Source of the DNA: a virus
Lineage: Duplodnaviria > Caudoviricetes
Direction: 5' to 3' (one strand)
DNA: 64,000 nucleotides
Virus record (IMG/VR): IMGVR_UViG_3300033069_000592
Coordinates: 400 to 64,399 of that record
Position 1 is the stretch's first letter. Each line of letters opens with the position of its first letter. Below the pieces are notes generated by a model that saw only the letters and a program-made list of their open reading frames with translations, was not told the origin of the DNA and did not search any database. Made by a program: the position numbers and the translations under genes. This document shows, one piece after another, positions 7,209-43,529 of this stretch.

Positions 7209-7724
7209 ATGAATATCTTTTCTATCTCACGTCACCCGCGTATGTGCGCCAAAGCGCTCGATGACAAGCGCCTTAATAAGATGATCCTTGAGACTGCTCA
7301 GATCATTTGCACGGTCATTAACAAGACTGAAGGCTCACAGGTCACGCGATACCGAAGCAGTCACGTCAACCATCCCGCTACGATCTGGGCTGAGACCTTA
7401 CCCGCCGCATTGCCTTGGCTGTATGCGCTGGGCATCGCTTACGGCGATGAGATCCTGCATCGGCGCGGTCGACAGCACTCCTGCCACACAATGCTGCTTG
7501 AGCTCGTTGAGCAATACCCGTGGCTGCGTCGATACCGTCCGCTGCGCGAGGATCAGCTATTCAACGGCGCTCGACATAAGGGGCTTGACCTCGACTTCAC
7601 CTACCTGCCGACCACACAGGCCTATCGTGCCTATCTGTGTATGCGATGGCCGAACGACAAGCGGACGCCTGTATGGACTAACAGACGCCCGCCGTCATGG
7701 TTCTTTACTCCGGAGCCTCACTGA
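7209..7724 (+). CDS. Pyrimidine-dimer DNA glycosylase / endonuclease V-like protein
   Basis: MNIF...DKRLNKMILETAQII...HVNHPATIWA pattern of the DenV-like phage family. Confidence 0.7.
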   Translation: MNIFSISRHPRMCAKALDDKRLNKMILETAQIICTVINKTEGSQVTRYRSSHVNHPATIWAETLPAALPWLYALGIAYGDEILHRRGRQHSCHTMLLELVEQYPWLRRYRPLREDQLFNGARHKGLDLDFTYLPTTQAYRAYLCMRWPNDKRTPVWTNRRPPSWFFTPEPH

Positions 7725-8941: not shown

Positions 8942-9171
8942 GGTGGGTAGTCCCTCGTACTAATGACGGGTCCCTTTATGGCGCGCGAAAAGTTGACGGA
9001 TAACATACAAATGGTGGGGTCGAAAAATCGACGTTTTTAGGTCGTTTCGTGTCGTTTTGCGTATCATGACGCATCGAACGACGAAAAACGCGCCTTGGGC
9101 GCATCCAGCGCGACATTTCACGCGCCTTAGGACATGATCGCAACGCACGATTGCGCGCACTACGTTCAACG

Positions 9172-9483
9172 TCAAAAATCGACCTGTAGATGTCTGTAAT
9201 CGTGAAGTGCCAGGATCAAAGGCGAGACGTATTGCTCAAACGTCGATTGATCGGGCACGACCACGAGGCTGCCCAACTGGAACTCAAATAAAGTACGCTT
9301 GCCACACCACAGTCCGAGGTATGACAGCTGGGTGCCCGGTAGCGTTGGGGAGTTTTGGGCTCGCTCGAAGGAAAGTTCGAAGCAAGGCTTGGGCGAGTTA
9401 AGCAGATAGCCCTTCACCCATCCACCCTTGAGTTCGGTTACGCCAGCAAGACGTCGAAGTCGAGAGTGGATGGGGTGGTACAT
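9172..9483 (-). CDS. Hypothetical protein
   Basis: ORF track; contiguous with upstream minus-strand genes. Confidence 0.5.
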   Translation of the reverse strand: MYHPIHSRLRRLAGVTELKGGWVKGYLLNSPKPCFELSFERAQNSPTLPGTQLSYLGLWCGKRTLFEFQLGSLVVVPDQSTFEQYVSPLILALHDYRHLQVDF

Positions 9484-12038: not shown

Positions 12039-12305
12039 TCAGCTGTCCTTCGACTTCTTGTCGGCCTTGGAAGGCTTTTCGTCGTCGAGTGCCGCGGCAG
12101 CCTTTGCCTCTTCCTTCTCGAAGAGCTCGGACAGCGGCTGGGGCTCGGGACCCTGCTCGACTTCGAGGACGTGGTTGGCTTCGATATGGAACTCGCGTTC
12201 TTCGAAAGGGGCGAGGTTGAAGGTGTTTCCTTCACCGCCCTCCTTCGGGCGAAGGGACACAACGGCGCCCCATGCGCGAGCCTTGACCTTCACAGTGGTA
12301 GTCAT
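12039..12305 (-). CDS. Hypothetical protein (88 aa, start at 12305)
   Basis: GGAG SD and promoter upstream of MTTTVKVK. Confidence 0.75.
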   Translation of the reverse strand: MTTTVKVKARAWGAVVSLRPKEGGEGNTFNLAPFEEREFHIEANHVLEVEQGPEPQPLSELFEKEEAKAAAALDDEKPSKADKKSKDS

Positions 12306-12317
12306 GACTGTTCTCCA

Positions 12318-12368
12318 GTTGCGACATTGCAACGGAGACACAATAACGAATTGACGTTAAGAAGTCAA
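12318..12368 (-). promoter_or_regulatory. sigma70-type promoter with +1 hairpin
   Basis: TTGACT-17nt-TATTGT-6nt-GTTGC AATGTC GCAAC-TGGAG. Confidence 0.75.
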
Positions 12369-16720: not shown

Positions 16721-16848
16721 CTCGATTAGCCTTTCAATCAATTACGTGACTCCATAAACCTTAGAAATATGGATATGGACCAGGTCAGTGATACATACAA
16801 AAATCGCGGAATTTTATTACGTCGGTGTTTAATGAAATTACATTAATA

Positions 16849-16886
16849 AAACGTTGCGATTGTATGTTTACATTATCGCAACGTTT
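16849..16886 (-). terminator. Terminator-like hairpin after the 99-aa gene
   Basis: Perfect 12-bp inverted repeat AAACGTTGCGAT (16849-16860) / ATCGCAACGTTT (16875-16886), followed on the minus strand by a T/A-rich run. Confidence 0.65.
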
Positions 16887-16900
16887 CATGTCATCGCGCG

Positions 16901-17200
16901 TTATTCCGCATCGACGTTTTCGCGCGTTGTCGCGTCATTCTTTTTCGTCGTGCGCTTTTTCGCGTTTTCGATGCGTTGCGCGTAACGCGCGTCGAATGCG
17001 CAACGAATTGCGTCGTATTCACGCGAATTGTTTGCAATCCATGACGTGTTTTTGACATGCGATTGCGCAAACGCGACGCGCAATTTCGCGCGAATCTTTT
17101 TCGCGTTGTCGTCGATGATCGTTTTTTCACGCATCGCGTCATCGATGATCGTTTTCAAAACGATTGGAAACGCGCGCGTTTTCGTGTTTGACTTCGACAT
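16901..17200 (-). CDS. 99-aa basic protein encoded almost without CC/CT/GG/AG (probable family member 5)
   Basis: SD AAGGAA before ATG 17200 (MSKSNTKT); KKIRAKLR...SW resembles KIARAKLR...SW of the 27653 protein. Confidence 0.75.
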   Translation of the reverse strand: MSKSNTKTRAFPIVLKTIIDDAMREKTIIDDNAKKIRAKLRVAFAQSHVKNTSWIANNSREYDAIRCAFDARYAQRIENAKKRTTKKNDATTRENVDAE

Positions 17201-17224
17201 TTCGTTTATTCCTTTTTTCATCGA

Positions 17225-17281
17225 ATCGCGTGATTGCGTTTTCGATGTCATGAATATGCGCGCAAACGTTTAATAAATCAA
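17225..17281 (-). promoter_or_regulatory. sigma70-type promoter with leader motif
   Basis: TTGATT-17nt-CATATT; leader contains AACGC AATCAC GCGAT. Confidence 0.6.
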
Positions 17282-17347
17282 TAACGTGATGAAAAATTAT
17301 TTGTTTCATTTTGACACAACCCATAATTAACAAACAAGGTTAACAAA

Positions 17348-17446
17348 TTAACCATATTTCTTAACCATATTTCTTAACCCTATTTCTTAACCATACTTGT
17401 TAACCATTAATGTTAATGATTAATTCTTTAACCATATTTGTTAACC
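17348..17446. repeat. AT-rich tandem array of 13-bp TTAACCATATTTC-type units
   Basis: Units start at 17348, 17361, 17374, 17387, 17400, 17428 and (partial) 17441; five contain exact TTAACCAT. Confidence 0.95.
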
Positions 17447-17628
17447 AAGAGTTTCTCCAGCCATGGCCCAACCACGGACGGCCCAACCAAAGCCGACCCA
17501 ATTACTGCTACCCATCCATACAGTCTCTACCTATGCGAGGCTGGCCAGCCCACCCTTGCGCTATGCCGTAAGCCCCTGAGGACCTACGGCTTCGTATTAA
17601 GGGTTCATCATCGGGCATGGTCAGTTCC

Positions 17629-17832
17629 TCAGTTGGCACGGGCGTGATCGAAACGCATCATCCAATTGGCCACACGGGCATTGTCGGCCAGGATCGCACG
17701 ATCATGGGCACGGCGAACGGCATTGCGTTGGTCGGCGATTGCACGGACGCACTCGGAGACACGCTTGCGGCGTTCGAGACCCATGCGACGGCAGAGCTCG
17801 CGGCGATCACGTTCGAGGTTGGCTTCAATCAT
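17629..17832 (-). CDS. 67-aa Arg-rich hypothetical protein
   Basis: Promoter and GGAA SD upstream; helical R-rich sequence. Confidence 0.6.
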   Translation of the reverse strand: MIEANLERDRRELCRRMGLERRKRVSECVRAIADQRNAVRRAHDRAILADNARVANWMMRFDHARAN

Positions 17833-17864
17833 CGTTCATTTCCGTTCGTCGTTTCGATGAATAC

Positions 17865-17892
17865 ATAATAACGCAAACGAATTATGGTACAA
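17865..17892 (-). promoter_or_regulatory. sigma70-type promoter
   Basis: TTGTAC-16nt-TATTAT. Confidence 0.55.
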
Positions 17893-17923
17893 CCGTTTCA
17901 ATCCGTCTCGCTTCGCGAGTTTT

Positions 17924-18006
17924 CTGGCTTGGCCACTCCAGGGTTCTTACGATTAGATCTCTGGCTTGGCCATGGTCCATGGGTGGACCAACCCCTGGCT
18001 TGGCCA
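17924..18006. repeat. Three direct copies of CTGGCTTGGCCA
   Basis: Exact 12-mers at 17924, 17961 and 17995 in non-coding DNA. Confidence 0.9.
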
Positions 18007-18157
18007 GACTTTGGCTGGACCAGCTTTCCGCAGAAAATCTTCAGCGCTCTTCTCCGCGAAAGACAGCATGGCTCCGCAACTCTCTGGATGGTCCACCCAT
18101 CTACGCAGTACCAGATAGCGCCTGTAAGCCCACATGAGCCCACAGACGCTTCTAGTG

Positions 18158-18412
18158 TCAGAGACGCTCGACTCCGTGAAGGTCCTCGTGGACGCGATCA
18201 TAGGGAGCCTCGAAATAAATATCCACGTCATCCCCATCGAGATGGTAACGGACCAGATTTACATGGTCCCGGTTGCAGTCGAGCTCGTCGCGCATATCAT
18301 TGAGCAGCTCGCCCCAAGTAAACCTCACGGCCGCGTCAATATCCGTGGTTTCGGCCAGGTCGATTGCATCGGAGACGTCGAAGGCTCCCCGCATAACATA
18401 TTGCGTCATCAT
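18158..18412 (-). CDS. Acidic hypothetical protein
   Basis: SD GGAGG; typical codon usage. Confidence 0.65.
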   Translation of the reverse strand: MMTQYVMRGAFDVSDAIDLAETTDIDAAVRFTWGELLNDMRDELDCNRDHVNLVRYHLDGDDVDIYFEAPYDRVHEDLHGVERL

Positions 18413-18486
18413 GGCTCAATCCTCCGTTTCGTCGTCATCGAGATCGGCTGCATCGAGCCAGGTTACGATATTATCAATGTTAATAA

Positions 18487-18633
18487 TCATGAGAAGAACT
18501 CCTTGATTGCGGTCAGCGCCTCGATCAGCGATCCCGCAAATTCATCGCGGTCAGGGTGGCTTTCGATTATTTCAATGGCGTCGCTCAGGGCAAGAGGCAC
18601 ATCGTAGAGAGCCTTGAGTTCGGAGAGAGTCAT
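18487..18633 (-). CDS. 48-aa hypothetical protein
   Basis: GAGG SD before MTLSELKALY; promoter upstream. Confidence 0.6.
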   Translation of the reverse strand: MTLSELKALYDVPLALSDAIEIIESHPDRDEFAGSLIEALTAIKEFFS

Positions 18634-18653
18634 GGTAAGCCTCGATTCATGTG

Positions 18654-18706
18654 ATCGCGTAATTGCATCACGTAAAAACATTACGACATGAGCCTCTCGG
18701 AGACAA
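18654..18706 (-). promoter_or_regulatory. sigma70-type promoter with +1 hairpin variant
   Basis: TTGTCT-17nt-TAATGT then GATGC AATTAC GCGATC. Confidence 0.55.
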
Positions 18707-18934
18707 CACCCAAATTCTGCTCTAACTCTCTGGACCGGCCAGTCTCTTAGCTATTTACGGTAGATCTAAATCTTTAACGTAATTGAGTGTATCTACTAGT
18801 CTATCCGCATACCCTCCTACGCGGTCTCTAGTCTCATGTAATTACGTCAGACTCTTAGAGCGTGGCTCTGAGCTGGTCCGGCTGGCCCTTTCCTCCCCTT
18901 TTTCCGGATCCTCACCACCCAAAATCAAGGCTCG

Positions 18935-19110
18935 CGCGCGTGAATACAAAAAACATCATCATTATTGGTATTTTTTACCATTTATTCTGTTGGTATTGAC
19001 ATTAGCGCTATATCCGCATACAATTGCGCTCATCACCCCACCCGGTCTCAATACCGACAGCATATTCGGTATTTTTTACCCATTATGACATTGTTTTGAA
19101 TACACGCGCG
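18935..19110 (+). promoter_or_regulatory. Strong promoter bracketed by two operator-like repeats and an outer inverted repeat
   Basis: TTGACA(18996)-17nt-TACAAT; GGTATTTTTTACC at 18967 and 19068; 17-bp imperfect inverted repeat at 18935-18951 / 19094-19110. Confidence 0.75.
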
Positions 19111-19127
19111 AACCAAAGGATACCCAC

Positions 19128-19748
19128 ATGACCAAACGGACCAAGAAAAGGATCAACACTCTCTTCGGCTACGAGGAGCTTGACATGAAGACATTCAAGC
19201 AGCTCTTCCGCGCGGTGATGCGCTACGGGCTCAATGATAATGCAACCCTCGCAGGCAGGCTCTTAGGCGTCAGCCCTCGTAAGATCCGCGCATGGATTAA
19301 CGCAATCGACGACGACCTCCCTCTCACCGTCAAAGGCATCTGGTGGAATGACATTCTCCAGAAGCTCGCGGCTGACATGGCTAACACTCTCAGCCAACAC
19401 AGCCGTAAGGCATACCGAGAGCGAGCATACCGCCTGCGCTCAGAGCTCCACGGACTAAAGCTGGCGAAAACCAAGTATACCCCCGAGGGCAAGCCTCAAG
19501 AGCTGCCTGATCCCACGGCTGACGCAGAAGCTCCACGCCTCCTTCTTGCAACTCTCAACGAAGCCCCCGGTCAGACGATGACCCTCACTCAGCTCATGCG
19601 GTCCACAGCCCTCAGCAAGGTAACTATCCAGCGAGCTGCAGATCGTCTATGCCTAACACGAGACGTCAGGGGCTTCGGCGAGGATAAGCAGGCCTACTAC
19701 AGCATCCCCCTGCCATCAGACGACTACACAGACGACGAGGACGATTAG
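19128..19748 (+). CDS. Putative DNA-binding protein with N-terminal HTH and C-terminal winged-helix
   Basis: NATLAGRLLGVSPRKIRAW; MTLTQLMRSTALSKVTIQRAADRL; SD AAGGA. Confidence 0.65.
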   Translation: MTKRTKKRINTLFGYEELDMKTFKQLFRAVMRYGLNDNATLAGRLLGVSPRKIRAWINAIDDDLPLTVKGIWWNDILQKLAADMANTLSQHSRKAYRERAYRLRSELHGLKLAKTKYTPEGKPQELPDPTADAEAPRLLLATLNEAPGQTMTLTQLMRSTALSKVTIQRAADRLCLTRDVRGFGEDKQAYYSIPLPSDDYTDDEDD

Positions 19749-19965
19749 GCGGTCGATTTTAACGCGCCCAGCAATGCGTTCAATCGTCGCGCGCATCATT
19801 GATCGCACAAAACCTAATCGACGTTCCTGGCGCGCTCCAGGACGACGATGGACGATACCGCAAATATCGCGTCATATGACGATTGTAACGCGCGCAAACG
19901 ATACGCGCCAAAAGACCGGCAGAGCACTATACCCGCCGGTCTATGACCTGTTCAGTCTTTGGGGC

Positions 19966-22486: not shown

Positions 22487-22496
22487 GATTTCCTCC

Positions 22497-22547
22497 ATCG
22501 CGTCATTGCGATGTTATGACAATACGATGATGGTTGCCGCGAGTCAA
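22497..22547 (-). promoter_or_regulatory. sigma70-type promoter with +1 hairpin
   Basis: TTGACT-17nt-TATTGT-6nt-ATCGC AATGAC GCGAT-GGAGG. Confidence 0.8.
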
Positions 22548-22568
22548 CGACCCGCGACTTCCATATTC

Positions 22569-23135
22569 TCAAAGATCAATCGGCTGGTTGTCGGCCAGGC
22601 AATCGAGAAGAGCATTGCTCAGGGTAACCTGACCCGACTTGGCCAGTGCCTCAACGAGCTCGCGGACCTGCTTGCGAGTGCCTCGCAGCTGAACGACCAT
22701 CTGTTCGGCCTCCCGCAGGCTGTCAAGGTGCTTCGCGCCGTGCTCGGTCAGCACGAAACGCTTGGCCTTGGTGCGAGCCACGAGCTCATCAGCCAGCAGG
22801 TCGATCAAGAATACGGTCGAAGCCTTGCTGGCCAGTGTGGGATCCCAGCCGTTCGGGTTGGCGTTGGCGATCTCACGGAGGAGATCATCGGCCGATGAGA
22901 TACGGTGCTGGCGTTCCTTGAAGGGATAGTCGAGCTCGAAGACTCGAAAGATCTCCTTGACCGTTGCCGCGCCCGTATTGGGCAGACGGGAGAAATGGTC
23001 ATAGACGACATCGGGATTGGCCTTGAAAGCCTTCTTGAGTTCCTCGACGCCAGTGTAGCTCGAATTGACCATCGCCGTAACGGCGCGGGTGGAAAGGTTG
23101 TAGCCCTTCAGGTCGGATCGTGCGATGCCCGTCAT
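22569..23135 (-). CDS. Protein with N-terminal RNA polymerase alpha-CTD-like (HhH) domain
   Basis: NLSTRAVTAMVNSSYTGVEEL...RLPNTGAATVKEI parallels the alpha-CTD LSVRSANCL...KTPNLGKKSLTEI pattern. Confidence 0.6.
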   Translation of the reverse strand: MTGIARSDLKGYNLSTRAVTAMVNSSYTGVEELKKAFKANPDVVYDHFSRLPNTGAATVKEIFRVFELDYPFKERQHRISSADDLLREIANANPNGWDPTLASKASTVFLIDLLADELVARTKAKRFVLTEHGAKHLDSLREAEQMVVQLRGTRKQVRELVEALAKSGQVTLSNALLDCLADNQPIDL

Positions 23136-23530
23136 GCCTTGTCTCCCCAGGAACGAACCCAGACGATTGCAACGCCCGGTTCAAGCTCAGAGACAGCAAG
23201 ACCGTCATCGCCATCGCCGATCAGCCACTTGTAACCTCCGCAGACGAAGTCGCACTGACCCTCGGGCTCATGGGTGCAGTAATGGTCGAGGATGCGAGCC
23301 ATATAGCCGTAACGGCCGTATTCGCCGCCGCGCCCGATCATCGAGATGCTGTTGGCGTTGTCATGCACCCAACGATAGCCCTCGTAGGTCAGGGCTACGA
23401 CGAGGTTGATGCCCATGACATGGGGGGTGATGTCAAAGGCGGTGTAATCGAAGACGACGCGGCCGGCCAGTTCGGGATGGCGTTCGAGGATCGCGGCGGC
23501 TGCGGCGTCACGGAGTTCAGCGTTTCGCAT
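23132..23530 (-). CDS. Hypothetical protein
   Basis: GGAG SD; promoter upstream. Confidence 0.7.
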   Translation of the reverse strand: MRNAELRDAAAAAILERHPELAGRVVFDYTAFDITPHVMGINLVVALTYEGYRWVHDNANSISMIGRGGEYGRYGYMARILDHYCTHEPEGQCDFVCGGYKWLIGDGDDGLAVSELEPGVAIVWVRSWGDKA

Positions 23531-23542
23531 TGTTCATTCTCC

Positions 23543-23593
23543 ATCGCGTTATTGCGATGACATATAAATACGCGCTGGCATTTCCGCAATCAA
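23543..23593 (-). promoter_or_regulatory. sigma70-type promoter with +1 hairpin
   Basis: TTGATT-17nt-TATTTA-6nt-ATCGC AATAAC GCGAT-GGAG. Confidence 0.75.
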
Positions 23594-23606
23594 CCGAAAC
23601 GGTCTA

Positions 23607-23768
23607 TCAAAAACCGATAGAGTTTTCGAGGGGCTTGCGCTCATGCTCAATCACCATGGATCGGTCGAGAACCTTAACGCTGATGACCTCCCGGTGTGCG
23701 AGCTCACGCTCGAGGAAAGCTTGAGCCTGCTTGGTGGGAAGGTGGAGTGGAACAAAGAGCTGCGTCAT
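23607..23768 (-). CDS. 53-aa hypothetical protein (not in ORF track)
   Basis: MTQLFVPLHLPTKQAQAFLERELAHREVISVKVLDRSMVIEHERKPLENSIGF directly after the 23772 stop. Confidence 0.55.
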   Translation of the reverse strand: MTQLFVPLHLPTKQAQAFLERELAHREVISVKVLDRSMVIEHERKPLENSIGF

Positions 23769-23771
23769 GGT

Positions 23772-24092
23772 TCAGGCCTTCATGTGGCTGATGTCTGCGG
23801 CGATGATCGTCCGCAGCCATTCGTTGTGGGAGTATTGTGCGGCGAAGGCTTCGAGGCCGGCTTCCTGGATCTGTCGTTCCCAGCTCTGTGCTTCTTCGCC
23901 GAACATGGTCTCATGCTCATCGGACTCGATGATGCCGCTGGCCAGGTTACAGACCTCGGAGTAAGCGTCGGTCGACCAGCCCCAGCGGGTGCTGATAACC
24001 TGCTCCACAGATACGTTAAGGCCGAGCTGGCCATAGTTGCTGATCGCCATTGCCGCGGCTGCGCGGGCTACCTTGCGTGGATCGTCGGTCAT
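23772..24092 (-). CDS. Hypothetical protein
   Basis: ATGA overlap. Confidence 0.7.
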   Translation of the reverse strand: MTDDPRKVARAAAAMAISNYGQLGLNVSVEQVISTRWGWSTDAYSEVCNLASGIIESDEHETMFGEEAQSWERQIQEAGLEAFAAQYSHNEWLRTIIAADISHMKA

Positions 24093-24304
24093 AGGGAAAC
24101 TACCTCATAGGTATATTGGCCATACATTCGGCACATGCCGGTCTTGAAACGGCTGGCGTCATTTCGGCTGCGGAACAAAGCCTCCACAGAGCCGGGGAGG
24201 CGGACGGAAACATCGCGGGCGACGATCACGGCGTAGCTGAAGCCCATTTTCTTCAGCGCCTTGATCTGGTCGGGTGTCATACGGATTGCGGGAAGGTTGT
24301 TCAT
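24089..24304 (-). CDS. Hypothetical protein
   Basis: ATGA overlaps. Confidence 0.65.
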   Translation of the reverse strand: MNNLPAIRMTPDQIKALKKMGFSYAVIVARDVSVRLPGSVEALFRSRNDASRFKTGMCRMYGQYTYEVVSL

Positions 24305-24489
24305 GCGGCTACGAGCTCCTCGAGGTCACGGGACTCCTCAGCGCAGCCCATCAAGAAGAACACTTCCTCCTGGCGGGTGTCACAGAACTTGAGAGCCTCG
24401 TCAAGGTTTTGGGGAAGGCCGCCGGCAATGACGTATTCCTTGCCGCACTCAAAGGCGCTGCGACAGCCATCGTTCGGAAAGATCCTCAT
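24301..24489 (-). CDS. Cys-containing hypothetical protein
   Basis: Fills the operon gap; ATGA overlap downstream. Confidence 0.55.
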   Translation of the reverse strand: MRIFPNDGCRSAFECGKEYVIAGGLPQNLDEALKFCDTRQEEVFFLMGCAEESRDLEELVAA

Positions 24490-24492
24490 CGT

Positions 24493-24702
24493 TCAGCCCT
24501 CCACCTTGTGGAACTTGCCGTCATCCTTCAGCTGATAGCGCTGACCGAAGCCGGTTCCATAGCGCACACCTTCGGACTTGGCGCAGTCGAGGCAGACGTT
24601 GCCCCAGCGAGCGAAGCGCGGGATTTTCGCATCGGCGAAGTCGGTGTCGAGATTGGCATGGCAGAGGTCACACTCGGCCGGCGGATTGAGGTAGGTCGTC
24701 AT
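24493..24702 (-). CDS. Small Zn-finger protein
   Basis: CDLC ... WGNVCLDC ... GTGFGQRY; GGAG SD. Confidence 0.75.
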   Translation of the reverse strand: MTTYLNPPAECDLCHANLDTDFADAKIPRFARWGNVCLDCAKSEGVRYGTGFGQRYQLKDDGKFHKVEG

Positions 24703-24712
24703 CGTTGTCTCC

Positions 24713-24763
24713 ATCGCGTTGTTGCGATACGGGCATTATATGATGATGGGTGCTATGACGCAA
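24713..24763 (-). promoter_or_regulatory. sigma70-type promoter with +1 hairpin
   Basis: TTGCGT-17nt-TATAAT-6nt-ATCGC AACAAC GCGAT-GGAG. Confidence 0.85.
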
Positions 24764-24784
24764 CACCCATCATCTTGATTGTTC

Positions 24785-25309
24785 TTAGAGCCAGCGGTCC
24801 ATGTATTCCCGGCCGCGTTCAGTAACACCGCGCTCATCCAGAAGAGCGAAGCGCAAGGCGTACTTGACGTGGTCTTCAATATCGACGCCGGCTGCACCCA
24901 TGTTAGCCTTGAGCTCTTCAAGCTCAACTGCGTTACCCCAGTGAAGCAACACTCGGCAGGTGTCTTCGGGGTCAGTGTCAGCGTAGCCGATAAGCTCGAG
25001 GAGGTCTTCGCCGTCCAGCATATCGTGGGCGTGTTCTTTGGCGGAGTCGCGGACTTCCTCGATCATCATTTCGACCATACGGTTCTGCTCATCCACGGTG
25101 AACAGCTCAGACCGCCACAGAGGTGTGGGCCGGTCACCTGGGGCCCGTTCAAGGTTTTCTTGAACGAAATCAACCAGACGGCTAAGCACCTCTGTGGGAT
25201 AAGGACCACCGAACTCATCCTCAAGGAACTGCGTAACAAGGTCCAGCATTTCTTTGTCGCTGGTATCGGTTGCTTCCTGGTGAAGCTTAAGTGTTTCTGC
25301 AATGGTCAT
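24785..25309 (-). CDS. Acidic hypothetical protein
   Basis: 174 aa; ATGA overlap. Confidence 0.7.
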   Translation of the reverse strand: MTIAETLKLHQEATDTSDKEMLDLVTQFLEDEFGGPYPTEVLSRLVDFVQENLERAPGDRPTPLWRSELFTVDEQNRMVEMMIEEVRDSAKEHAHDMLDGEDLLELIGYADTDPEDTCRVLLHWGNAVELEELKANMGAAGVDIEDHVKYALRFALLDERGVTERGREYMDRWL

Positions 25310-25530
25310 GCTTCGGTCTCCTGAAGCTTGGCGTCGATGGCTTCGATCATGCCGTCATAGTCGCGAGCTTTGAACTTGCGGCCGGTGAACTGTTCGGCAA
25401 CGCGACGGCAATTGGCCGGGGTGTAGGCGCGGTTCAGTCGCATACCAAGCTTGATGGCCTTGAGTCCTTGCTTGGCAGCAACAGCGGCGATGCGGCCGGG
25501 ATCGGGATTGATGATCGTGAAACCGGTCAT
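25306..25530 (-). CDS. Hypothetical protein (74 aa)
   Basis: GGAG SD before MTGFTIINP. Confidence 0.7.
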   Translation of the reverse strand: MTGFTIINPDPGRIAAVAAKQGLKAIKLGMRLNRAYTPANCRRVAEQFTGRKFKARDYDGMIEAIDAKLQETEA

Positions 25531-25721
25531 TCGTAGTCTCCCAGGATCGAGTTGATAAACTCGTCCGCCTCTTCGGACGATGCGCCCCACGAGCACAGCT
25601 CATCATAGAAGGCGTGCTGATTTTCGCGGCTCATGTTGGAATTGGTGAAAGCTTCATAGGCGGCCGAGAAGGCATCGCCATGGCCATTCGAGTGGATCTT
25701 GTCTTCAAGACTCATTGACAT
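25527..25721 (-). CDS. Hypothetical protein
   Basis: AGGAG SD; promoter upstream. Confidence 0.7.
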   Translation of the reverse strand: MSMSLEDKIHSNGHGDAFSAAYEAFTNSNMSRENQHAFYDELCSWGASSEEADEFINSILGDYE

Positions 25722-25728
25722 TCTCCTG

Positions 25729-25779
25729 GATGCGTCATTGCATCGTCATCATATTGCAACTTGGTTATTCTTAATTCAA
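25729..25779 (-). promoter_or_regulatory. sigma70-type promoter with +1 hairpin
   Basis: TTGAAT-17nt-CAATAT-6nt-GATGC AATGAC GCATC-CAGGAG. Confidence 0.65.
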
Positions 25780-26025
25780 CCGCCTCAGTCTCATGAAACG
25801 CGCCTTTTTGCCATGGAGGTTGGTGAAGAACGCGTGGACAACCACCGGCTCATCGCGGTCATCGAGCTCATACTTAAAAGAAAGCTCACCGATTGCAGGT
25901 CGGTCAGGACGGACAGCTTTGTTGTCGGCGATTTGCTGAACCTGCCCACGCAGTTCTGGCAGGTCGTCGGCCTCAATCGACTGGGGGACTGCGACCATAT
26001 GACTGGTCTCTACATTCCATTTCAT
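25771..26025 (-). CDS. Hypothetical protein
   Basis: Starts immediately after the stop of the 26026 gene. Confidence 0.55.
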   Translation of the reverse strand: MKWNVETSHMVAVPQSIEADDLPELRGQVQQIADNKAVRPDRPAIGELSFKYELDDRDEPVVVHAFFTNLHGKKARFMRLRRLN

Positions 26026-26574
26026 TTAATTGACTCCACAGAGCTTCTTGATAGCATCGACTTCATTTGGCGCGAATGCCCAGCCGTATTCGGGCTTCGG
26101 TCGACCAGACGCGCGCAGTGCTGCTCGTGCGATCATCGGCGGGAGGTCCCAGGCGGTGCACAGCTCGGTGATCGTTCGATAACCGTCAGGACGCTCGGCG
26201 CGCTTCGTGCGCTCGGCCTTGGGGGCTCGTTTTTCAACGGTGGTGCCATCACTGGTGGCACGTTCGCGCGGCGCTTCGTCCCAGGTGCCATATTTGAACT
26301 GAAGGATCCATCGCCGATACTGGTCGGGTAGCTGCCAGTCGTCTTCAGTGACATCGAAGACCTCGTCATATCGGGAACACTTGAGCTGGAAAGGGCCAAC
26401 GTCAATAGCGTCCCGCACGGGGATCAGAGGCTCATTGCCCGCGAAGGTTCGAAGCCAGGTAAGCGCTTTGTAGGCTTGATCGAAGATCACGATATGGACA
26501 CGGTCGTAGGTGTCTGTCGGTCGACGCCCGCGAGCGTAGATCACGAAGCTGTCTTTTGGTGTTTTGTTTCTCAT
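26026..26574 (-). CDS. Putative DNA-binding protein (family member 2; full-length paralogue of 6094-6756)
   Basis: N-terminal FVIYAR...TYD; C-terminal RTITELCTAWDLPPMIARAALRASGRPKPEYGWAF. Confidence 0.7.
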   Translation of the reverse strand: MRNKTPKDSFVIYARGRRPTDTYDRVHIVIFDQAYKALTWLRTFAGNEPLIPVRDAIDVGPFQLKCSRYDEVFDVTEDDWQLPDQYRRWILQFKYGTWDEAPRERATSDGTTVEKRAPKAERTKRAERPDGYRTITELCTAWDLPPMIARAALRASGRPKPEYGWAFAPNEVDAIKKLCGVN

Positions 26575-26580
26575 TGGTTC

Positions 26581-26630
26581 CTCGCGTTGTTGCGATACGT
26601 GAACAATAAACGATTGGACGATGGCGTCAA
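26581..26630 (-). promoter_or_regulatory. sigma70-type promoter with +1 hairpin
   Basis: TTGACG-16nt-TATTGT-6nt-ATCGC AACAAC GCGAG-GA. Confidence 0.75.
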
Positions 26631-26857
26631 CCGCTCCGGGCTTTCATGTCCTTGCGGATTTCCTTGGCGAGCGGTTCCATGAGCATGGACAGGTCCCCGG
26701 TCCGTTCGATCACCTTCTGAGCCAGGGCGTCATTGCATCCCTGCTCAATCAGGATCTTGACGAGGCCAAGGGTGACCTCGTGGTAGATCGCATCCATGCG
26801 GTTGGTGAACATACGGCCGTCGGCCTCGCAGACGTAGGCGGTGATAGCTTTTACCAT
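26627..26857 (-). CDS. Hypothetical protein
   Basis: YVCEADGRMFTNRMDAIYHE. Confidence 0.65.
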   Translation of the reverse strand: MVKAITAYVCEADGRMFTNRMDAIYHEVTLGLVKILIEQGCNDALAQKVIERTGDLSMLMEPLAKEIRKDMKARSG

Positions 26858-26862
26858 GGCGG

Positions 26863-27549
26863 TTACCTCAGCAGATTGTTACGAAGGGGTACCGACTGCC
26901 CGAAGGCTTTGCCGGCGGTGAAGGCGCTTGAACTGTTGACCTTCGCGGATGACTTGCGCGCCTGTCCCAGGTTGAGTCCCAGGTTGGTGCGAATGTAGTC
27001 GAGGTTGCCCTGAGCCTCGTTGTTCCCGAGAACTGCAAGCGCCGTCGACTGTGTGCCGGTCAGCTTCAGGATGGGATCCTTGGAGGCAAGCTGATTGCTG
27101 GGAGCCATCTCCATGCAACGTTGGTAGATCGACTGTGCAGCCCCGGTCATGAACGACCGACCACCCGCGGTGGTGCGGGCTTCCTGCTGAACGGCGCGAA
27201 GCACCATGACCGCGATAGCATGGCAGACCGCCACGTTGCTTTCCTCGCCGACGATGGTGATAGTGTCCGTTCGGCCGTTACGGGTGAAGAACCACTTGCA
27301 GTAGTAGAGGTTCGTGATACCATGAAGGATCATTGAGGACCAAGGCCGCTTGAGCACCTGCAGCGTCTTGTGGGTTCGCCTAACGTCCTTCTCGACGTGT
27401 TCGACTTCGGCTCGTTCGAGATTGTAGCGCTGCATGAGCTCGAGCGCTTTTGCGTTGAAGGCTTCCGCCTCTGCCACAGAGCAGGCGGTATTGTCGGCCT
27501 TCGCAAGGAGCTTCGCAATGCGGTCCTTGATCTTCGCCATGTCTTCCAT
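26863..27549 (-). CDS. DUF2786-type protein
   Basis: KIKDRIAKLLAKA...EAEAFNAKALELMQRYNL; GGAG SD before ATG 27549. Confidence 0.75.
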   Translation of the reverse strand: MEDMAKIKDRIAKLLAKADNTACSVAEAEAFNAKALELMQRYNLERAEVEHVEKDVRRTHKTLQVLKRPWSSMILHGITNLYYCKWFFTRNGRTDTITIVGEESNVAVCHAIAVMVLRAVQQEARTTAGGRSFMTGAAQSIYQRCMEMAPSNQLASKDPILKLTGTQSTALAVLGNNEAQGNLDYIRTNLGLNLGQARKSSAKVNSSSAFTAGKAFGQSVPLRNNLLR

Positions 27550-27561
27550 GCGTATTCTCCA

Positions 27562-27613
27562 GTCGCGTGATTGCGACAATTCATCTTGTAATGAAAAAGG
27601 CACCGGCGATCAA
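27562..27613 (-). promoter_or_regulatory. sigma70-type promoter with +1 hairpin, overlapping a terminator
   Basis: TTGATC-17nt-TACAAG-7nt-GTCGC AATCAC GCGAC-TGGAG. Confidence 0.65.
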
Positions 27614-30933: not shown

Positions 30934-31428
30934 ATGGCCATCATCGTCGAAGGTATGGATAATTCGGGCAAGTCTACGTTGGGACAGGCGCTCGCCGATT
31001 ACATGGACCTGATCGTGCAGGAGAGCGAGGGCCCGCCTATCGACGCGGACGAGATTAATGCTCGCGTTGATCGCTACGAAGGAATGACGGATAGGCTGTT
31101 CGTTCGGCATCCCGTTATCTCCAATGCGATTTACGGACAAGTCCGCGAAGAAGGCGACATTATCTCCGAAGGTCGCCGTATGCTCTTCTACGAAAACAAG
31201 CATACGATCATCTACTGCGATGCGGGGACCCGCGGTCTCGGTGCTCATGTCCAGAAGGCTCATGATACTGAGAAGCACCTGGAAGACATCACCAACAACT
31301 ACAACAAGCTGCTCTACCTTTACCGTCAATGGGCGGCCGAGCATGCTCACTTCGTCTATCGCATCGGCGATGATATGGACCAGCTGATTGCTACGGTCTA
31401 CTTCTACCATATGTATCAGAACAGCTAA
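30934..31428 (+). CDS. P-loop nucleoside monophosphate kinase
   Basis: IIVEGMDNSGKST; 164 aa; first gene of the nucleotide-metabolism operon. Confidence 0.75.
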   Translation: MAIIVEGMDNSGKSTLGQALADYMDLIVQESEGPPIDADEINARVDRYEGMTDRLFVRHPVISNAIYGQVREEGDIISEGRRMLFYENKHTIIYCDAGTRGLGAHVQKAHDTEKHLEDITNNYNKLLYLYRQWAAEHAHFVYRIGDDMDQLIATVYFYHMYQNS

Positions 31429-31437
31429 GGAGAACGA

Positions 31438-32316
31438 GTGATGTTTATTCCAACTCACCGACACGTGGATGGCGGCCTTTATCAGCATATCGGCCCTATG
31501 AGAGGTAAGCATCCTTCGAACGACCTATGGTTCGAGGGCATCGCCTATCGCAATGAAGAAGGCATGATGTTCTGGACCACCGAAGAACGGTGGAATGATC
31601 GCTTCGAAGCCCTCGAGCCCTCATCCTTCCGCGATGTCCTGTTGTGGGACGATCAGAACGAAGCGGTGGCTTCTTTCCGCATCGAGGCTCACCACGCTAC
31701 CGACGCTTACTATATGATTACCCGCGCGGGCCCGGGAAACAGCCACAAGGTCAGCCGCGAGTTCTTGGACTGGATGCGTCGGGTTCTCAAGGTTCAAGCG
31801 GAAATGATCGCCGAGGGTCTTCATATCCGTGAGCACGACTTTCCCGATCTTATCGGTGATGTCAACGCTTTCCACGCCAAGTTCGGTCAGGAATACACCG
31901 GCAAGCCCCGGCTACTGCCACGGGATCTCCATGAGTTTCGCACCAAATTCCATGACGAGGAAACCGGCGAGTATACTGAGGAGTATGAGAAGCTCTTGGA
32001 TGCGATTGAGCGCCGCGACCGGCGGGACATCATTACCGCGATGGAGAAGCAGCTGGACTCGCTGGCCGACGCTGCCTGGGTTATTCTCGGGACTGCAGAT
32101 CTTCAGTTCGGTCGGAAGGCGTTCATCGAAGCATGGCGCCGAGTCGTGAAAGCCAATATGGCGAAAGTCTTGGCGACGGAGGATCCCAACGCCGAGGACA
32201 GCGGCCGGGAAGTCAAATATGACATTCGCAAGCCCGCCGGCTGGCTGCCGCCCGATCACCGTGACCTGGTCGAGGACAACGCCATCTTCGATGAACTCTT
32301 TGGACAGGAAGCCTAA
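31438..32316 (+). CDS. DUF1653-like N-terminus fused to MazG-like (all-alpha) dNTP pyrophosphatase
   Basis: HRHVDGGLY...YRNEEG...RF; DVNAFHAKFG...DEETGEY...LDSLADAAWV...VVKANMAK. Confidence 0.75.
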   Translation: MMFIPTHRHVDGGLYQHIGPMRGKHPSNDLWFEGIAYRNEEGMMFWTTEERWNDRFEALEPSSFRDVLLWDDQNEAVASFRIEAHHATDAYYMITRAGPGNSHKVSREFLDWMRRVLKVQAEMIAEGLHIREHDFPDLIGDVNAFHAKFGQEYTGKPRLLPRDLHEFRTKFHDEETGEYTEEYEKLLDAIERRDRRDIITAMEKQLDSLADAAWVILGTADLQFGRKAFIEAWRRVVKANMAKVLATEDPNAEDSGREVKYDIRKPAGWLPPDHRDLVEDNAIFDELFGQEA

Positions 32317-32319
32317 GCC

Positions 32320-33156
32320 ATGAAGGATGAGTGGATCAAAGAGATCTTGAGGCTTTCGCGTCAAGAAGCCGACTTCTATTCGGGATGCCGAAAGATCATT
32401 CGTAACCACATGGTCACTTTCGATGACCTGTGGGAGGACGAAGATCCACTCATCCTCGAGGACGCCGGTTATACCAAGTCCAAGATGTCCCACCTGGTAA
32501 GGCTCTATCATCACGAGGAGTCTATCGAAAAAGCCATAGAGCTTTGGAAGCTTCGCCGCTCCAAGACTTCCTATGGCTCTGTGGGCTTCACCTGCTACAA
32601 CCACTTGGTGAAGAATGATGCCGAGAAAAAATCGAAGCGGGCCTCGGTCATGGGTCCATGTATTCAGGCTGTTACGATTACGCAGGTTAAGGGCGGTAAA
32701 AACGGGCAGTACTACATCGACGCCTTCTACCGAACCACGGAAATCCTGAAGAAGTTTCCCGCGGATCTGGTCTTTATCCGTGATGTCTTGTTGAAAGACT
32801 TTGACTTCTCCGGCATGGAATTTACGGGGCTGACTTGTCATTTCGCAAATGTTACAGTGCATCCGCAGTACTTCGTGACGGCAATCCCCCATATGGAGGA
32901 TCCCATCAAGGAGCTCGAACGCATCAAGAAGAAGGACCGCTACTTCTATGACTGGATCATCAAGTGGACGGCTCGATACTTGTGTGAAGAGCACTACCGA
33001 GGAATTGCCAAGTTCGCGCAGGCTCTCCGTGTTAAAATGGATGCTGACAAGCGGATCAAGGGACGCCGACGCCGCGAGCTTACTGACTACCTCCGGGCTA
33101 ATCATCCCGGCCATCGCCACGACTACACCGCTCCCGAAGAGGAAGATGAAGAATGA
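32320..33156 (+). CDS. Divergent thymidylate-synthase-fold protein
   Basis: GPCIQ ... YRTTEILKKFPADL aligns register-for-register with APCTI ... IRSCDFVKHFRNDL of the next gene. Confidence 0.65.
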   Translation: MKDEWIKEILRLSRQEADFYSGCRKIIRNHMVTFDDLWEDEDPLILEDAGYTKSKMSHLVRLYHHEESIEKAIELWKLRRSKTSYGSVGFTCYNHLVKNDAEKKSKRASVMGPCIQAVTITQVKGGKNGQYYIDAFYRTTEILKKFPADLVFIRDVLLKDFDFSGMEFTGLTCHFANVTVHPQYFVTAIPHMEDPIKELERIKKKDRYFYDWIIKWTARYLCEEHYRGIAKFAQALRVKMDADKRIKGRRRRELTDYLRANHPGHRHDYTAPEEEDEE

Positions 33157-33995
33157 TGTATAACCGCTTTGATGCCGTCATCCAGGAATATCGGGATAGG
33201 CTGAGGAACGAAGGCGAGCTGGTTCACAGCCGCCGTTGGCAGGGTGTCGAAATTGCGAACAACCCCAATATGGCGTGTCTTGAATTGACTCACGTCCACT
33301 TCGAAGTGCAGATGGATGGTTATGAGGAAGACCTCGAAGTATACGCCAAGTGCATTCAGCCCGACCTCCCATGGGCGGACAACCACTTCGAGGAGCGAGT
33401 TTGCGGCTATCCGATCAATCCCGGTACCGAGTTCAAGAACTGGCCATGGAACAGGGGGCGTGGCGCTGAGTCGTTCCTTGATCGCCGGGGCAAGTTCAAT
33501 CACAACTACATGGAGCGGTACTGGCCGAAGCATGCCCACGTGGTTCAAGAGCCCACAGCCGGTTCGGCGGATTATCGGTCGCGCTTCAAGGACTACTTCC
33601 AGACCGGCAAGGTCTCGACCATGCAGGGCATCATGTATGAGTATGGTGACCTGAAGGACGTGGTGGACCTGATGATCGATGATCCCCTGACCCGCCAGGC
33701 CTATTTGCCTGTGTGGTTCCCCGAGGACACCGGCGGCGGTGACAAGCGAGCACCCTGCACCATTGGTTACCACTTCCTGATGCGGAATGATCGACTGTCG
33801 GTCAACTACCATATTCGCAGCTGCGACTTCGTCAAGCACTTCCGCAATGATCTTTATCTTACGGCTCGATTGGTGATCTGGGTGCTTCGTCAGCTACAGT
33901 CTCGCGATGCTCGCTGGAAGGAAGTGTCCGTCGGTGATTTCATCATGCAGATTGGTTCGCTGCACTCATTCCGTCCGGACTGGGAGCTGATCTGA
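33153..33995 (+). CDS. Thymidylate synthase/dCMP hydroxymethylase-family enzyme, predicted dCMP-specific
   Basis: TRQAYLPVW, catalytic PC, RSCD, Asp at the E. coli ThyA Asn177 position (FRND as in T4 gp42), GSLH. Confidence 0.85.
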   Translation: MMYNRFDAVIQEYRDRLRNEGELVHSRRWQGVEIANNPNMACLELTHVHFEVQMDGYEEDLEVYAKCIQPDLPWADNHFEERVCGYPINPGTEFKNWPWNRGRGAESFLDRRGKFNHNYMERYWPKHAHVVQEPTAGSADYRSRFKDYFQTGKVSTMQGIMYEYGDLKDVVDLMIDDPLTRQAYLPVWFPEDTGGGDKRAPCTIGYHFLMRNDRLSVNYHIRSCDFVKHFRNDLYLTARLVIWVLRQLQSRDARWKEVSVGDFIMQIGSLHSFRPDWELI

Positions 33996-34213
33996 TGTCG
34001 GCTTTTCACACCGACTTCAACACCGGCGAGCGTGTTATCGTGGATGGTGACACCTCCCTGGTGGGAATAGTCACCGCGATCTTGGTAAGGGGTAAAGACT
34101 TCGGGGGAGAACGGTACACCTTTATCTTTCAGTATGAGGTGTCCTGGTTCCACAATGGTGAGTCGAAGTCCTCTTGGATTGAAGAATACCGCCTGAGCAG
34201 ACCGGAGAAGTAG
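33995..34213 (+). CDS. 72-aa hypothetical beta-barrel-like protein
   Basis: TGATG overlap; GERVIVDGD...GIVTAI...YEVSWF. Confidence 0.6.
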   Translation: MSAFHTDFNTGERVIVDGDTSLVGIVTAILVRGKDFGGERYTFIFQYEVSWFHNGESKSSWIEEYRLSRPEK

Positions 34214-34214
34214 A

Positions 34215-34724
34215 ATGGCTCGTATCTCTCGACAGCAAATGTTTATGGGAATTGCAAGGCTCGCTTCACAGCGGGCCACTTGCTTTCGACTGAACGTTGG
34301 GGCGCTGGTTGTTCATGAGAACAATCCCATCGCCATCGGCTACAATGGCCAAGAACCTGGAGCTCGTCACTGCGCCGGCAATGACTGCCCGGGGATTGTG
34401 CCCGGCAAGTGTGGAACGCTTCATGCCGAACACAACGCGCTGACCAAGGCGGACAAGCTCATCGATGACCTGGCGGAGGTTGACCTCTACGTTACCCACA
34501 GTCCCTGCGTCGATTGCTGTTTACTTATCATCAACCAGGACCTCTACGTCCGCAGGATTTTCTTCGAGGTTCCCTATCGATCCACACAGCACCTGAGTAT
34601 GCTTCAAGAGTACCGGGACGTTACCTCACTCGAAGGCGGCGTCCGGCATACGGAAGTTTACGAGGTGACGCCGGCGGGCTACGTCGTGGAATACTTCTCC
34701 CGAAGGGTAGTTGAATTGCCATGA
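34215..34724 (+). CDS. dCMP deaminase
   Basis: RATC.RLNVGA, GYNG, HAE, SPCVDC zinc-binding motifs. Confidence 0.92.
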   Translation: MARISRQQMFMGIARLASQRATCFRLNVGALVVHENNPIAIGYNGQEPGARHCAGNDCPGIVPGKCGTLHAEHNALTKADKLIDDLAEVDLYVTHSPCVDCCLLIINQDLYVRRIFFEVPYRSTQHLSMLQEYRDVTSLEGGVRHTEVYEVTPAGYVVEYFSRRVVELP

Positions 34725-43315: not shown

Positions 43316-43473
43316 AGAGTAGCAGCGAAATACGCGCACTAGGCGATGATCGCTAGGCGATGCGCAGTGCGACACGTCACGCGCTCGCGATACACCTCAG
43401 CACTGACCCAGCGCTTCGCTGGCATGCCACGAATGATCGATAAACCGAGCGATTATCAATCACAAGGTGCCCG

Positions 43474-43502
43474 TTGACCATAAGGTTAATAGGAAATATG
43501 AT
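43474..43502 (+). promoter_or_regulatory. sigma70-type promoter with GGTTAA in the spacer
   Basis: TTGACC-17nt-TATGAT. Confidence 0.7.
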
Positions 43503-43529
43503 GGCCAGGCATCGAACGAGGGTTGGGCC

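Follow-up and report, generated by a model that had tools for sequence, protein, structure and literature searches.

A short early transcription unit in the genome of a river/wastewater siphovirus is kept free of cytosine followed by a pyrimidine (5′-CY-3′) on both strands by purifying selection, down to a handful of residual sites. We interpret this unit as an early expression island, clear of some obstacle or attack, in a genome whose cytosines are probably modified, and its product as a protein that may counter the hazard or bind DNA; we give this reading a probability of roughly 35%. The source is a 64.4-kb IMG/VR virus record (IMGVR_UViG_3300033069_000592, rated 100% complete), and positions refer to the window, the 64,000-nt stretch (positions 400 to 64,399 of the record) that was analyzed. 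It carries siphovirus genes (terminase, portal, a 1328-aa tape measure protein, PolA, primase-helicase and ligase) along with ThyX and a DenV-like glycosylase for nucleotide metabolism and repair.

Extent and composition of the depleted zone

Between positions 16791 and 17319 (529 nt) the plus strand holds three CC, five CT, three GG and no AG steps (together 5′-CY-3′ and its complement 5′-RG-3′; target steps), i.e., 11 of 528 steps where mononucleotide composition predicts ∼111, and this recount bears out the figure given by an earlier sequence-only reading of the same DNA, the depletion as a whole proving more pronounced than that reading described. Target steps make up 2% of the zone versus 26.6% of the genome, and banned dinucleotides have observed/expected ratios (O/E) of 0.0 to 0.13. 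In a sliding-window count over the whole genome, 529-nt segments contained 140.3 target steps on average (sd 15.1), placing the zone ∼8.5 sd low, and at 100-nt, 150-nt and 200-nt scale it was the sole strongly depleted zone. Target-free runs extend up to 107 nt, while runs of ≥40 nt are expected only 0.07 times in the whole 529 nt. None of the other conserved genes of this genome was depleted (sense RG/CY of 0.023/0.003 in the zone gene versus ∼0.13/0.13 elsewhere). Weak partial dips occur at 8970-9213 and 19739-19932.

The remaining steps are unevenly represented. CG is found in 75 copies (3.2-fold enriched) and GC is enriched 1.75-fold, RC steps are abundant (AC 24, GC 41), AA/TT are raised, TA is halved, and TC/GA and CA/TG are normal or high. 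G+C content is 42% in the zone versus 56% in the genome. The CpG and GpC excess and the lowered G+C can be explained by the ban itself, since in combination with the GC pressure of the genome it leaves C only before a purine and G only after a pyrimidine. Purine-purine or pyrimidine-pyrimidine steps (AA, TT, GA, TC) account for 214 of 528 (40%), which rules out the alternating purine-pyrimidine (Z-prone) structure suggested earlier as a cause. Several other candidates conflict with the composition and were dropped. Avoidance of UV dimers does not fit the abundance of TC and TT, nor does McrBC-type avoidance of R-mC fit that of RC, and the ban extends beyond GC flanks, contrary to CviJI-type avoidance of RGCY. 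An assembly or library artifact was likewise rejected, as assemblies of many samples, from JGI, ENA and Logan, contain the unit.

Anatomy of the unit

The depletion spans a predicted promoter, an ORF and an intrinsic terminator (Table 1), in agreement with the claim of the sequence-only reading that a complete unit is affected. The putative promoter and transcript start are not among the sites listed by a simple consensus scan; TTG(A/T)TT-N17-TATATT-like boxes are kept in relatives. About ten early units, this one included, share promoter and leader type, the same type of leader hairpin being found on about nine others. Strong GGAG Shine-Dalgarno (SD) sequences precede other early genes, versus a weak one or none in this unit; in relatives the SD is reduced to AAGTGA or AAGCGA, or absent, and in the predicted fold the SD region is unpaired. 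A 116-aa reading of the ORF (to 17251) was discarded because the starts of homologues give it no support. The tandem array at the upstream boundary is missing from several relatives that still keep the ban. Neither Rfam families nor tRNAs were found in the region. Logan contigs from RNA libraries cover parts of the unit and the upstream non-coding region, and are uninformative on expression, ends and strand.

Table 1. Features of the depleted unit, its boundaries and the probable modification operon (positions in the window)
Feature	Positions	Strand	Remarks
CY/RG-free zone	16791..17319	.	11/528 target steps
Predicted sigma70-type promoter	17253..17281	-	-35 TTGATT 17281..17276, 17-nt spacer, -10 CATATT 17258..17253; predicted from sequence and relatives
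Predicted transcript start ACATCG and 5′ leader hairpin ATCGAA...TTCGAT	17219..17248	-	Paired in MFE and centroid folds
Weak Shine-Dalgarno AAGGA	17210..17214	-	Contains two residual targets (AG and GG)
99-aa ORF with stop	16901..17200 (coding 17200..16904)	-	Start supported by lengths and starts of homologues
Intrinsic terminator	16839..16889	-	15-nt arms 16846-16860 and 16875-16889, then T-run on minus strand
Tandem 13-bp array TTAACCATATTTC	17348..17457	.	Directly upstream of unit; upstream boundary of zone in this lineage
Downstream boundary	16763..16785	.	Inverted copy of CCATATTTCT 16763-16775 and conserved motif ACC^TGGTCC (minus, 16785..16777)
Probable cytosine-modification operon	30934-34721		NMP kinase, MazG-like pyrophosphatase, two proteins called TS-fold by the sequence-only reading, dCMP deaminase

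Codon choice and protein composition

The ORF contains seven targets, six within codons and one at a codon junction, and the other details noted from the letters also hold: the protein lacks Gly and contains a single Pro and a single Trp, TTG encodes both Leu residues, and two further targets lie in the SD. Recoding the same protein with genome codon usage gave 51.9 ± 4.8 targets (minimum 35 in 2000 draws) versus the 7 observed, and shuffling the gene's own synonymous codons gave 5.4 ± 1.2 junction targets versus 1 observed (P = 0.0006). The depletion is therefore significant against codon-preserving controls, and these had the same outcome when repeated in 11 homologous genes. The lowest count possible for the 99-aa protein is 3, and the proteins of the family can reach minima of only 2 to 4 because they have no Gly, few Pro and none of the [KEQMW][VADEG] dipeptides that would force RG at a junction. 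Together with the codon controls, these absences support the earlier claim that selection on DNA has shaped the protein.

Within the allowed set, codons keep a GC3 preference (ACG > ACA, GCG > GCA, CGC > CGT, AAC > AAT), and 350 C-G junctions were counted in 15 pooled strong-ban genes. The main optional violation is AAG: about one-third of these codons follow AAA, thereby breaking a run of A, and most others precede CGN Arg. Residual sites fall where a target is forced (Trp, Pro, SD) or where AAG interrupts a run of A, a pattern that fits a density-dependent cost. PAM avoidance, Rho YC dimers and tRNA or codon adaptation were dropped as explanations, as codon junctions obey the rule too.

Maintenance of the ban across relatives

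Homologous genes in relatives were compared in 29 distinct units examined at the DNA level (drawn from JGI, ENA, Logan and IMG/VR assemblies and reaching as low as ∼40% protein identity). The ban was strong in 19 (1 to 5% target steps versus 20 to 28% in flanks), including a clade only ∼45% identical to the protein of this phage; it was intermediate in seven (6 to 14%) and lost in three (L021 and L022, 25%; L056, 18%). The most extreme unit, L058, has no AG, GG or CT, two CC, no Trp and no SD, and L012 tolerates CC, though not AG, GG or CT. Strong-ban lineages use different codons at 30 to 50% of identical-residue sites, almost never outside the allowed set, and among lineages with 32 to 85% identity synonymous turnover is confined to that set, indicating that the rule is actively maintained and not an inherited composition. 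In five lineages (L009, L027, L028, L031 and L058) the zone measures 600 to 870 bp and holds extra small ORFs unrelated to each other, all of which obey the rule (that of L058 has its own promoter and leader), so that the ban is positional and not specific to one protein. Across lineages the zone is 0.5 to 0.9 kb long.

These data bear on whether the unit is a foreign cassette that retains the odd composition of its donor. Like phage morons it is a self-contained transcription unit, with its own predicted promoter, leader and intrinsic terminator around a single gene, and its composition is unlike that of its neighbors (G+C of 42 to 49% for the cassette versus 56%); L021, moreover, looks fully ameliorated. 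However, the composition of a moron is a fading relic of its donor, whereas here synonymous sites are near saturation between deep lineages and yet stay inside the allowed codon set, and the unrelated ORFs in the zone follow the rule too. We know of no donor with such a dinucleotide composition, and consider this origin extremely unlikely.

A probable DNA-level rule with strand polarity

In most lineages the target-free stretch reaches 50 to 135 nt upstream of the predicted transcript start; in this genome, the spacers and −35 regions of the remaining early promoters do contain target steps. The banned set CC/CT/GG/AG is exactly closed under reverse complement, as follows automatically from a rule for duplex DNA (no C then pyrimidine on either strand). 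Coverage of the promoter and upstream stretch and reverse-complement symmetry favor a DNA-level over an RNA-level cause, and the ban very probably acts on DNA, although upstream tandem promoters could make part of that stretch transcribed.

The two halves of the rule differ in strictness. In every intermediate lineage sense RG (equivalent to template CY) is scarcer than sense CY (observed/expected of 0.15 to 0.42 versus 0.26 to 0.87), and even L021, where the ban is lost, shows 0.78 for sense RG versus 1.12 for sense CY; genome-wide, by contrast, AAG (85%) and CAG (78%) are the preferred codons. The strictest ban falls on template-strand CY, which ties the hazard to the direction of transcription. 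Obstacles on the template strand are expected to weigh most for elongation, so the polarity fits a block to RNA polymerase. That part of the sequence-only proposal of a block at CY/RG is thus consistent with the data; the context-specific modifier it would need was not found, and the modification pathway described below should act on every C.

That the constraint is instead one on RNA is unlikely. An mRNA without AG/GG (SD-like, or an endoribonuclease site) and without CC/CU (anti-SD-like) could escape RNases or be translated independently of an SD, and the stricter half of the rule is indeed RG on the mRNA strand; L012, which tolerates CC alone, the strong GGAG SDs of other early genes and the unpaired SD region can be read in the same way. 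However, the ban includes promoter spacers within the 50 to 135 nt upstream of the predicted start, where other early promoters have targets, exact closure under reverse complement needs special pleading for RNA, and L058 dispenses with any SD, so keeping an SD accessible cannot be the aim.

Recurrent C-to-T change at CY on both strands, for example by a context-specific deaminase acting on transcribed, origin or end DNA while selection keeps the indispensable sites, would account for the lower G+C, for the raised AA/TT and GA/TC, for CG as the sole mutually protected pair, and for residual sites that are mostly functionally forced. Yet the sharp boundaries of the zone coincide with functional elements, and transcription-linked deamination should hit the non-template strand most, when it is sense-strand CC that is regained first. 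C5-modified cytosines would also resist many deaminases, and deaminases read the 5′ neighbor of their target and are not known to read the 3′ neighbor. Such a local mutational bias is very unlikely to be the cause.

Probable cytosine modification and restriction pressure

The operon at 30934-34721 suggests how cytosines are treated in this phage. The protein at 33153-33992 has T4 dCMP hydroxymethylase as its best solved relative (E = 0.006), its FRND aligning to the FRND with the substrate-determining Asp, and matches a PHROG thymidylate synthase (4e-28). Further operon matches are a PHROG thymidylate-kinase-like family, a PHROG nucleotide-pyrophosphohydrolase and Pfam dCMP_cyt_deam_1 (3e-18). 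The putative second TS-fold protein (32320-33153) is the best-conserved protein without assigned function (71 to 83% identity); its model was unusable (pLDDT 44), and no solved relative was found by sequence. Asp177-type thymidylate synthase genes together with MazG-like and dCMP-deaminase genes mark phage contigs in which C is fully modified in any context (PMC8670742). From these homologies, a complete and context-independent replacement of C by a C5-modified form before replication is likely.

An operon that looks pre-replicative should modify every C, and not C in one context. PF01555, PF00145, PF01702, PF00535, PF00534 and PF02543 were absent from the 64.4-kb record in searches whose positive controls worked, and no DNA methyltransferase, TGT/DpdA, glycosyltransferase or carbamoyltransferase was recognizable in the genome, in which ORFs without assigned function remain. 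These results do not support the idea, offered as a possibility in the sequence-only reading, that the TS-fold cluster lays down a context-specific mark. Strong-ban genomes have the operon and so do intermediate-ban ones, and its first two genes appear to be kept, next to the primase, in a lineage that has lost the ban; modification alone therefore cannot set the ban. In a comparison of gene content between strong-ban (G000 and G003), near-strong (G005) and intermediate (G001 and G004) genomes, no gene tracked the ban.

Genome-wide, 13 hexamer palindromes occur at an O/E of <0.3 (e.g., CGATCG, 1 versus 36.7 expected; ACGCGT, 1 versus 16.9) and GANTC is avoided (142 versus ∼243), suggesting that the phage is under heavy restriction pressure. 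None of the 13 avoided hexamers lies inside the zone. General restriction-site avoidance was dropped as a cause of the ban, since CGCG, GCGC, TCGA and ACGT sites are frequent there. Classical palindrome avoidance, at work in the same genome, resembles the ban in being a selection on DNA words, there exerted by host nucleases; palindrome avoidance, however, is genome-wide and concerns palindromic 4-6-mers, whereas the CY/RG ban is local, dinucleotide and non-palindromic.

Zone boundaries and entry of the genome

The downstream boundary offers a different explanation, in which the zone would be the leading few hundred base pairs of virion DNA, entering first as in T5, expressed early and free of the context of a frequent-cutting defense. 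The junction motif reads CACG(C/A)ACC^TGGTCC in relatives; contigs L017 and L185 end exactly at ACC^TGGTCC, L026 ends 8 nt before it, and in this phage the zone begins 8 nt from it. These contig ends lend weak support to the first-ejected segment that the sequence-only reading had raised as an alternative, as does the extension of the ban over the whole zone regardless of the genes in it, in a genome under heavy restriction pressure. T5-like phages resist nuclease defenses only if the first-entering region lacks their sites (PMC10644984). In contrast, the junction is spanned by full-length contigs, and what look like terminal repeats in relatives are overlaps of 127 nt left by the assembler; the ends themselves were read from assembled contigs. 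The clustering of contig ends was noticed post hoc (chance level roughly 0.1), and when viral contigs were scanned for exact copies of the junction motif, most matches could be put down to chance. The terminase genes lie about 11 kb from the zone, and residual sites and strand asymmetry are unexpected if a double-strand cutter is avoided. On balance, we regard a leading-end position as rather unlikely.

The first-step-transfer region of T5 nevertheless resembles the zone in being a short early segment free of particular sites, in T5 those that host defenses recognize (PMC10644984), with small early genes and host-type promoters. T5 avoids specific 4-8 bp sites over a terminal repeat of ∼10 kb, whereas the zone bans two dinucleotide classes over 0.5-0.9 kb, at the expense of Gly, and whereas T5 has staged entry and a terminal position, the zone is likened to it from its sequence.

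The 99-aa protein

The product is basic and mostly helical and belongs to a small family in phage-like metagenomic contigs, with 82 close homologues and 54 clusters at 50% identity and with conserved K/R/H/N/S/W residues. Neither the DNA nor the protein had a match in phage records, and no family for the protein was found in PHROGs, in the ESM Atlas or in Pfam, even at E ≤ 10. An AlphaFold model (pLDDT 75) has four helices, for which Foldseek (best E = 3) and VIA-align (best Z = 3.8) returned no convincing match, and a homodimer prediction scored 0.08, too low to draw any conclusion from. Excisionase/Cox/Apl-like winged-helix regulators bind tandem repeats, but the 99-aa protein bears only a visual resemblance to the HTH_17-type winged-helix pattern, with no Pfam match at E ≤ 10 in 26 members and no fold match. 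A small domain shared with the 6094 and 26026 proteins was not supported by hhalign (probability <1%). One bacterial chromosomal gene encodes a TIR_2 domain fused to the domain of the 99-aa protein, a hint that phage-host conflict involves this protein, as a participant or as a target.

A basic product might itself be the reason for the ban, if it bound RG/CY duplex steps and coated or silenced DNA while its own island, lacking sites, stayed expressed. The ban always travels with this protein family, whose conserved residues and charge would suit such a role; the cost looks density dependent, the promoter lies inside the ban, and the domain is portable, the TIR fusion in a bacterium resembling the use of a sensor or binding domain. 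On the other hand, fold and family searches lent no support to DNA binding, binding would silence the phage's own genes too, strand asymmetry is not predicted, and lost-ban lineages keep the conserved residues. We consider self-exemption of this kind quite unlikely.

A proposed CY-free island for early expression

The facts call for a hazard that reads 5′-CY-3′ on DNA, is density dependent and template-strand biased, concerns one island, and is absent for some lineages or hosts. In the mechanism that we favor, the zone would be an autonomous island of promoter, leader, one small ORF (two in some relatives) and terminator, within DNA whose cytosines would all have been replaced by a C5-modified form before replication. 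Modified C followed by a pyrimidine would be the context in which something interferes with the incoming genome. The interfering agent could be a host factor with binding or cleaving activity on modified DNA, or else a secondary mark, and each site would have a small effect that adds up with site density. Devoid of CY, the island would offer host RNA polymerase a template for immediate recognition and full-rate transcription, whatever befalls the other DNA, and its basic protein would act in the conflict, either as a regulator that binds DNA or by neutralizing the hazard. Since 5-11 sites remain, a nuclease that needs one or two sites would not be evaded. Against the proposal stands the normal CY content of all other early genes, which have the same promoter type.

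Crystal structures of 5hmC DNA show the hydroxyl hydrogen-bonded to a 3′ guanine, and, more speculatively, a 3′ purine and a 3′ pyrimidine might present the C modification differently. To our knowledge no enzyme or host factor has CY specificity, and none was found in this analysis. Tentatively, and with more doubt than confidence, we suggest a novel activity on C5-modified C with a 3′ pyrimidine in these phages or their alphaproteobacterium-like hosts. The island, as the sole DNA open to expression untouched, would be the phage's "ignition key", and its product the member of a new counter-defense or DNA-binding family whose domain hosts would have captured into a TIR immune protein. Such an activity may be a modification-dependent defense of a new class; alternatively, RNA polymerase may be blocked by a secondary epigenetic mark.

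Type IV restriction enzymes read modified C and one base of context (R-mC for McrBC, mC-N-N-R for MspJI), and a hazard of that kind in fully C-modified DNA would need dinucleotide avoidance. We know of no type IV enzyme that reads mC and then a pyrimidine; the RC context of McrBC is frequent in the zone, as counted above, and type IV cleavage elsewhere would still hit the genome despite avoidance in a single unit. Host-driven dinucleotide suppression is known from CpG avoidance under ZAP in RNA viruses, from APOBEC "footprints" and from fungal RIP. There, as would be the case here, depletion stems from a factor reading a 2-nt context, but it is genome-wide, weaker (O/E of 0.2 to 0.8) and directed at CG, TC or CA, whereas the zone is local, far more strongly depleted, and threefold enriched in CpG. 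No precedent for a local CY/RG ban is known to us, and literature searches found no report of such a dinucleotide rule. The closest analogies are the site-free pre-early region of T5 and host-driven suppression in eukaryotic viruses, both of which differ in scale, context and strength.

Significance

A near-absolute ban on two dinucleotide classes in one deeply conserved island is a new kind of sequence signature, strong enough to strip glycine from a protein. Its form, which concerns the one-base 3′ context of C and is strictest on the template strand, specifies a biochemical target and allows the phage-host interaction to be tested directly in synonymously recoded genes. Should the hazard turn out to be a defense or a novel mark on DNA, the known activities that read context on modified DNA would gain a further member. 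Scanning phage genomes for local dinucleotide "holes" may reveal further early anti-defense islands.

Flanks and architecture of the CY-free unit

The junction motif bordering the CY-free unit (the minus-strand gene unit written almost without CC, CT, GG or AG steps) recurs at homologous places in the relatives' contigs L003, L007-L012, L015-L017, L025-L030 and L183-L187. For L017 and L185 the contig stops precisely at ACC^, and for L026 it stops 8 nt short of it; the motif may represent the end of the genome, a nick or a packaging site. On the other side of the unit, the tandem 13-bp array has an inverted partner (17323-17346/17397-17420 in the window), and TTAACCAT, identified as such in the sequence-only reading, is presumably a CtrA half-site. 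Arrays of this kind were found in the window phage and in L002, L004, L006, L007 and L013; L003, L009, L010 and L025 are without them, and the depletion is nonetheless kept.

Common to the early units are a -10 box, a leader hairpin of 5-6 bp at the predicted +1 (CATCGC-AAYGAC-GCGATG) and an abutting GGAG SD, of which the CY-free unit has the hairpin, and the SD only in weakened form. In five relatives the corresponding zones hold extra ORFs of 25-80 aa, mutually unrelated and in several cases with a hydrophobic N-terminus; the one in L058 comes with promoter-like boxes and a leader hairpin of its own. Antisense to the CY-free gene, the terminator-like hairpins number five, against 1.5±1.3 expected in shuffles. 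A block to antisense or read-in transcription is one possible role for them; they may also be a mere by-product of composition.

Features of the window phage and of relatives' contigs (L-numbers); other positions refer to the window
Feature	Position	Strand	Details
DenV-like pyrimidine-dimer glycosylase	7209-7721	+	Pfam Pyr_excise, 2e-07
Weaker CY/RG-poor, CpG-rich patches (two)	8970-9213; 19739-19932
Early units (about nine)	22496-27585; 12300-12340	-
Junction motif	16777-16785	-	CACG(C/A)ACC^TGGTCC...ATATTTCTAGG; downstream edge of CY-free zone
Terminator-like hairpins (five)	16922-17184	+	each followed by T-run; antisense to CY-free gene
Tandem 13-bp array	17348-17457		TTAACCATATTTC, at least 5 copies
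Repeat-packed stretch	17460-19120		mostly non-coding
Protein of unknown function	32320-33153	+	inside nucleotide-modification operon
Receiver-less OmpR/CtrA-type winged-helix protein	43467-43922	+	Trans_reg_C, 4e-07
Extra small ORFs in CY-free zones	L009:3372-3449; L027:1082-1279; L028:1893-2075; L031:1875-2117; L058:10408-10548

Repeats, depleted patches and avoided palindromes

The repeat-packed stretch contains GGCCCAACC twice, CTGGCTTGGCCA three times (spacing 37 and 34), GGTATTTTTTACC twice and several inverted repeats. TGG-N-CCA palindromes, of which the window has 27 against 16.5±4.4 expected, cluster in it. The stretch looks like an origin or regulatory hub, and short contigs from RNA libraries cover window 17432-17776. 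Elsewhere, the two weaker patches carry 13-14 CC/CT/GG/AG steps per 150 nt (mean 39.6, sd 6.4), the first with inverted repeats around AGGTCGATTTTTGACG.

Over its full length the window strongly avoids 13 hexamer palindromes, including (observed/expected) CGATCG (1/36.7), ACGCGT (1/16.9), TGATCA (2/19.6), GTGCAC (1/15.1), ATGCAT (0/14.3) and GAATTC (3/20.8); AATT (66/171) and GANTC (142/~243) are avoided as well. Such avoidance would be unexpected were every cytosine protected by modification. The protein of unknown function within the modification operon is the best conserved unknown of the phage group (71-83% identity over five genomes); it had no sequence match in Pfam or PDB, and its structure model was poor (pLDDT 44).

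A bacterial TIR fusion

A homologue of the CY-free unit's protein forms residues 153-234 of a chromosomal gene product on the 23-kb bacterial contig P0108 (ENA ERZ25039489), fused to a TIR_2 domain (E=1e-17). The gene adjoins a transposase amid housekeeping genes. This fusion may be an immune sensor made from the phage protein's domain.
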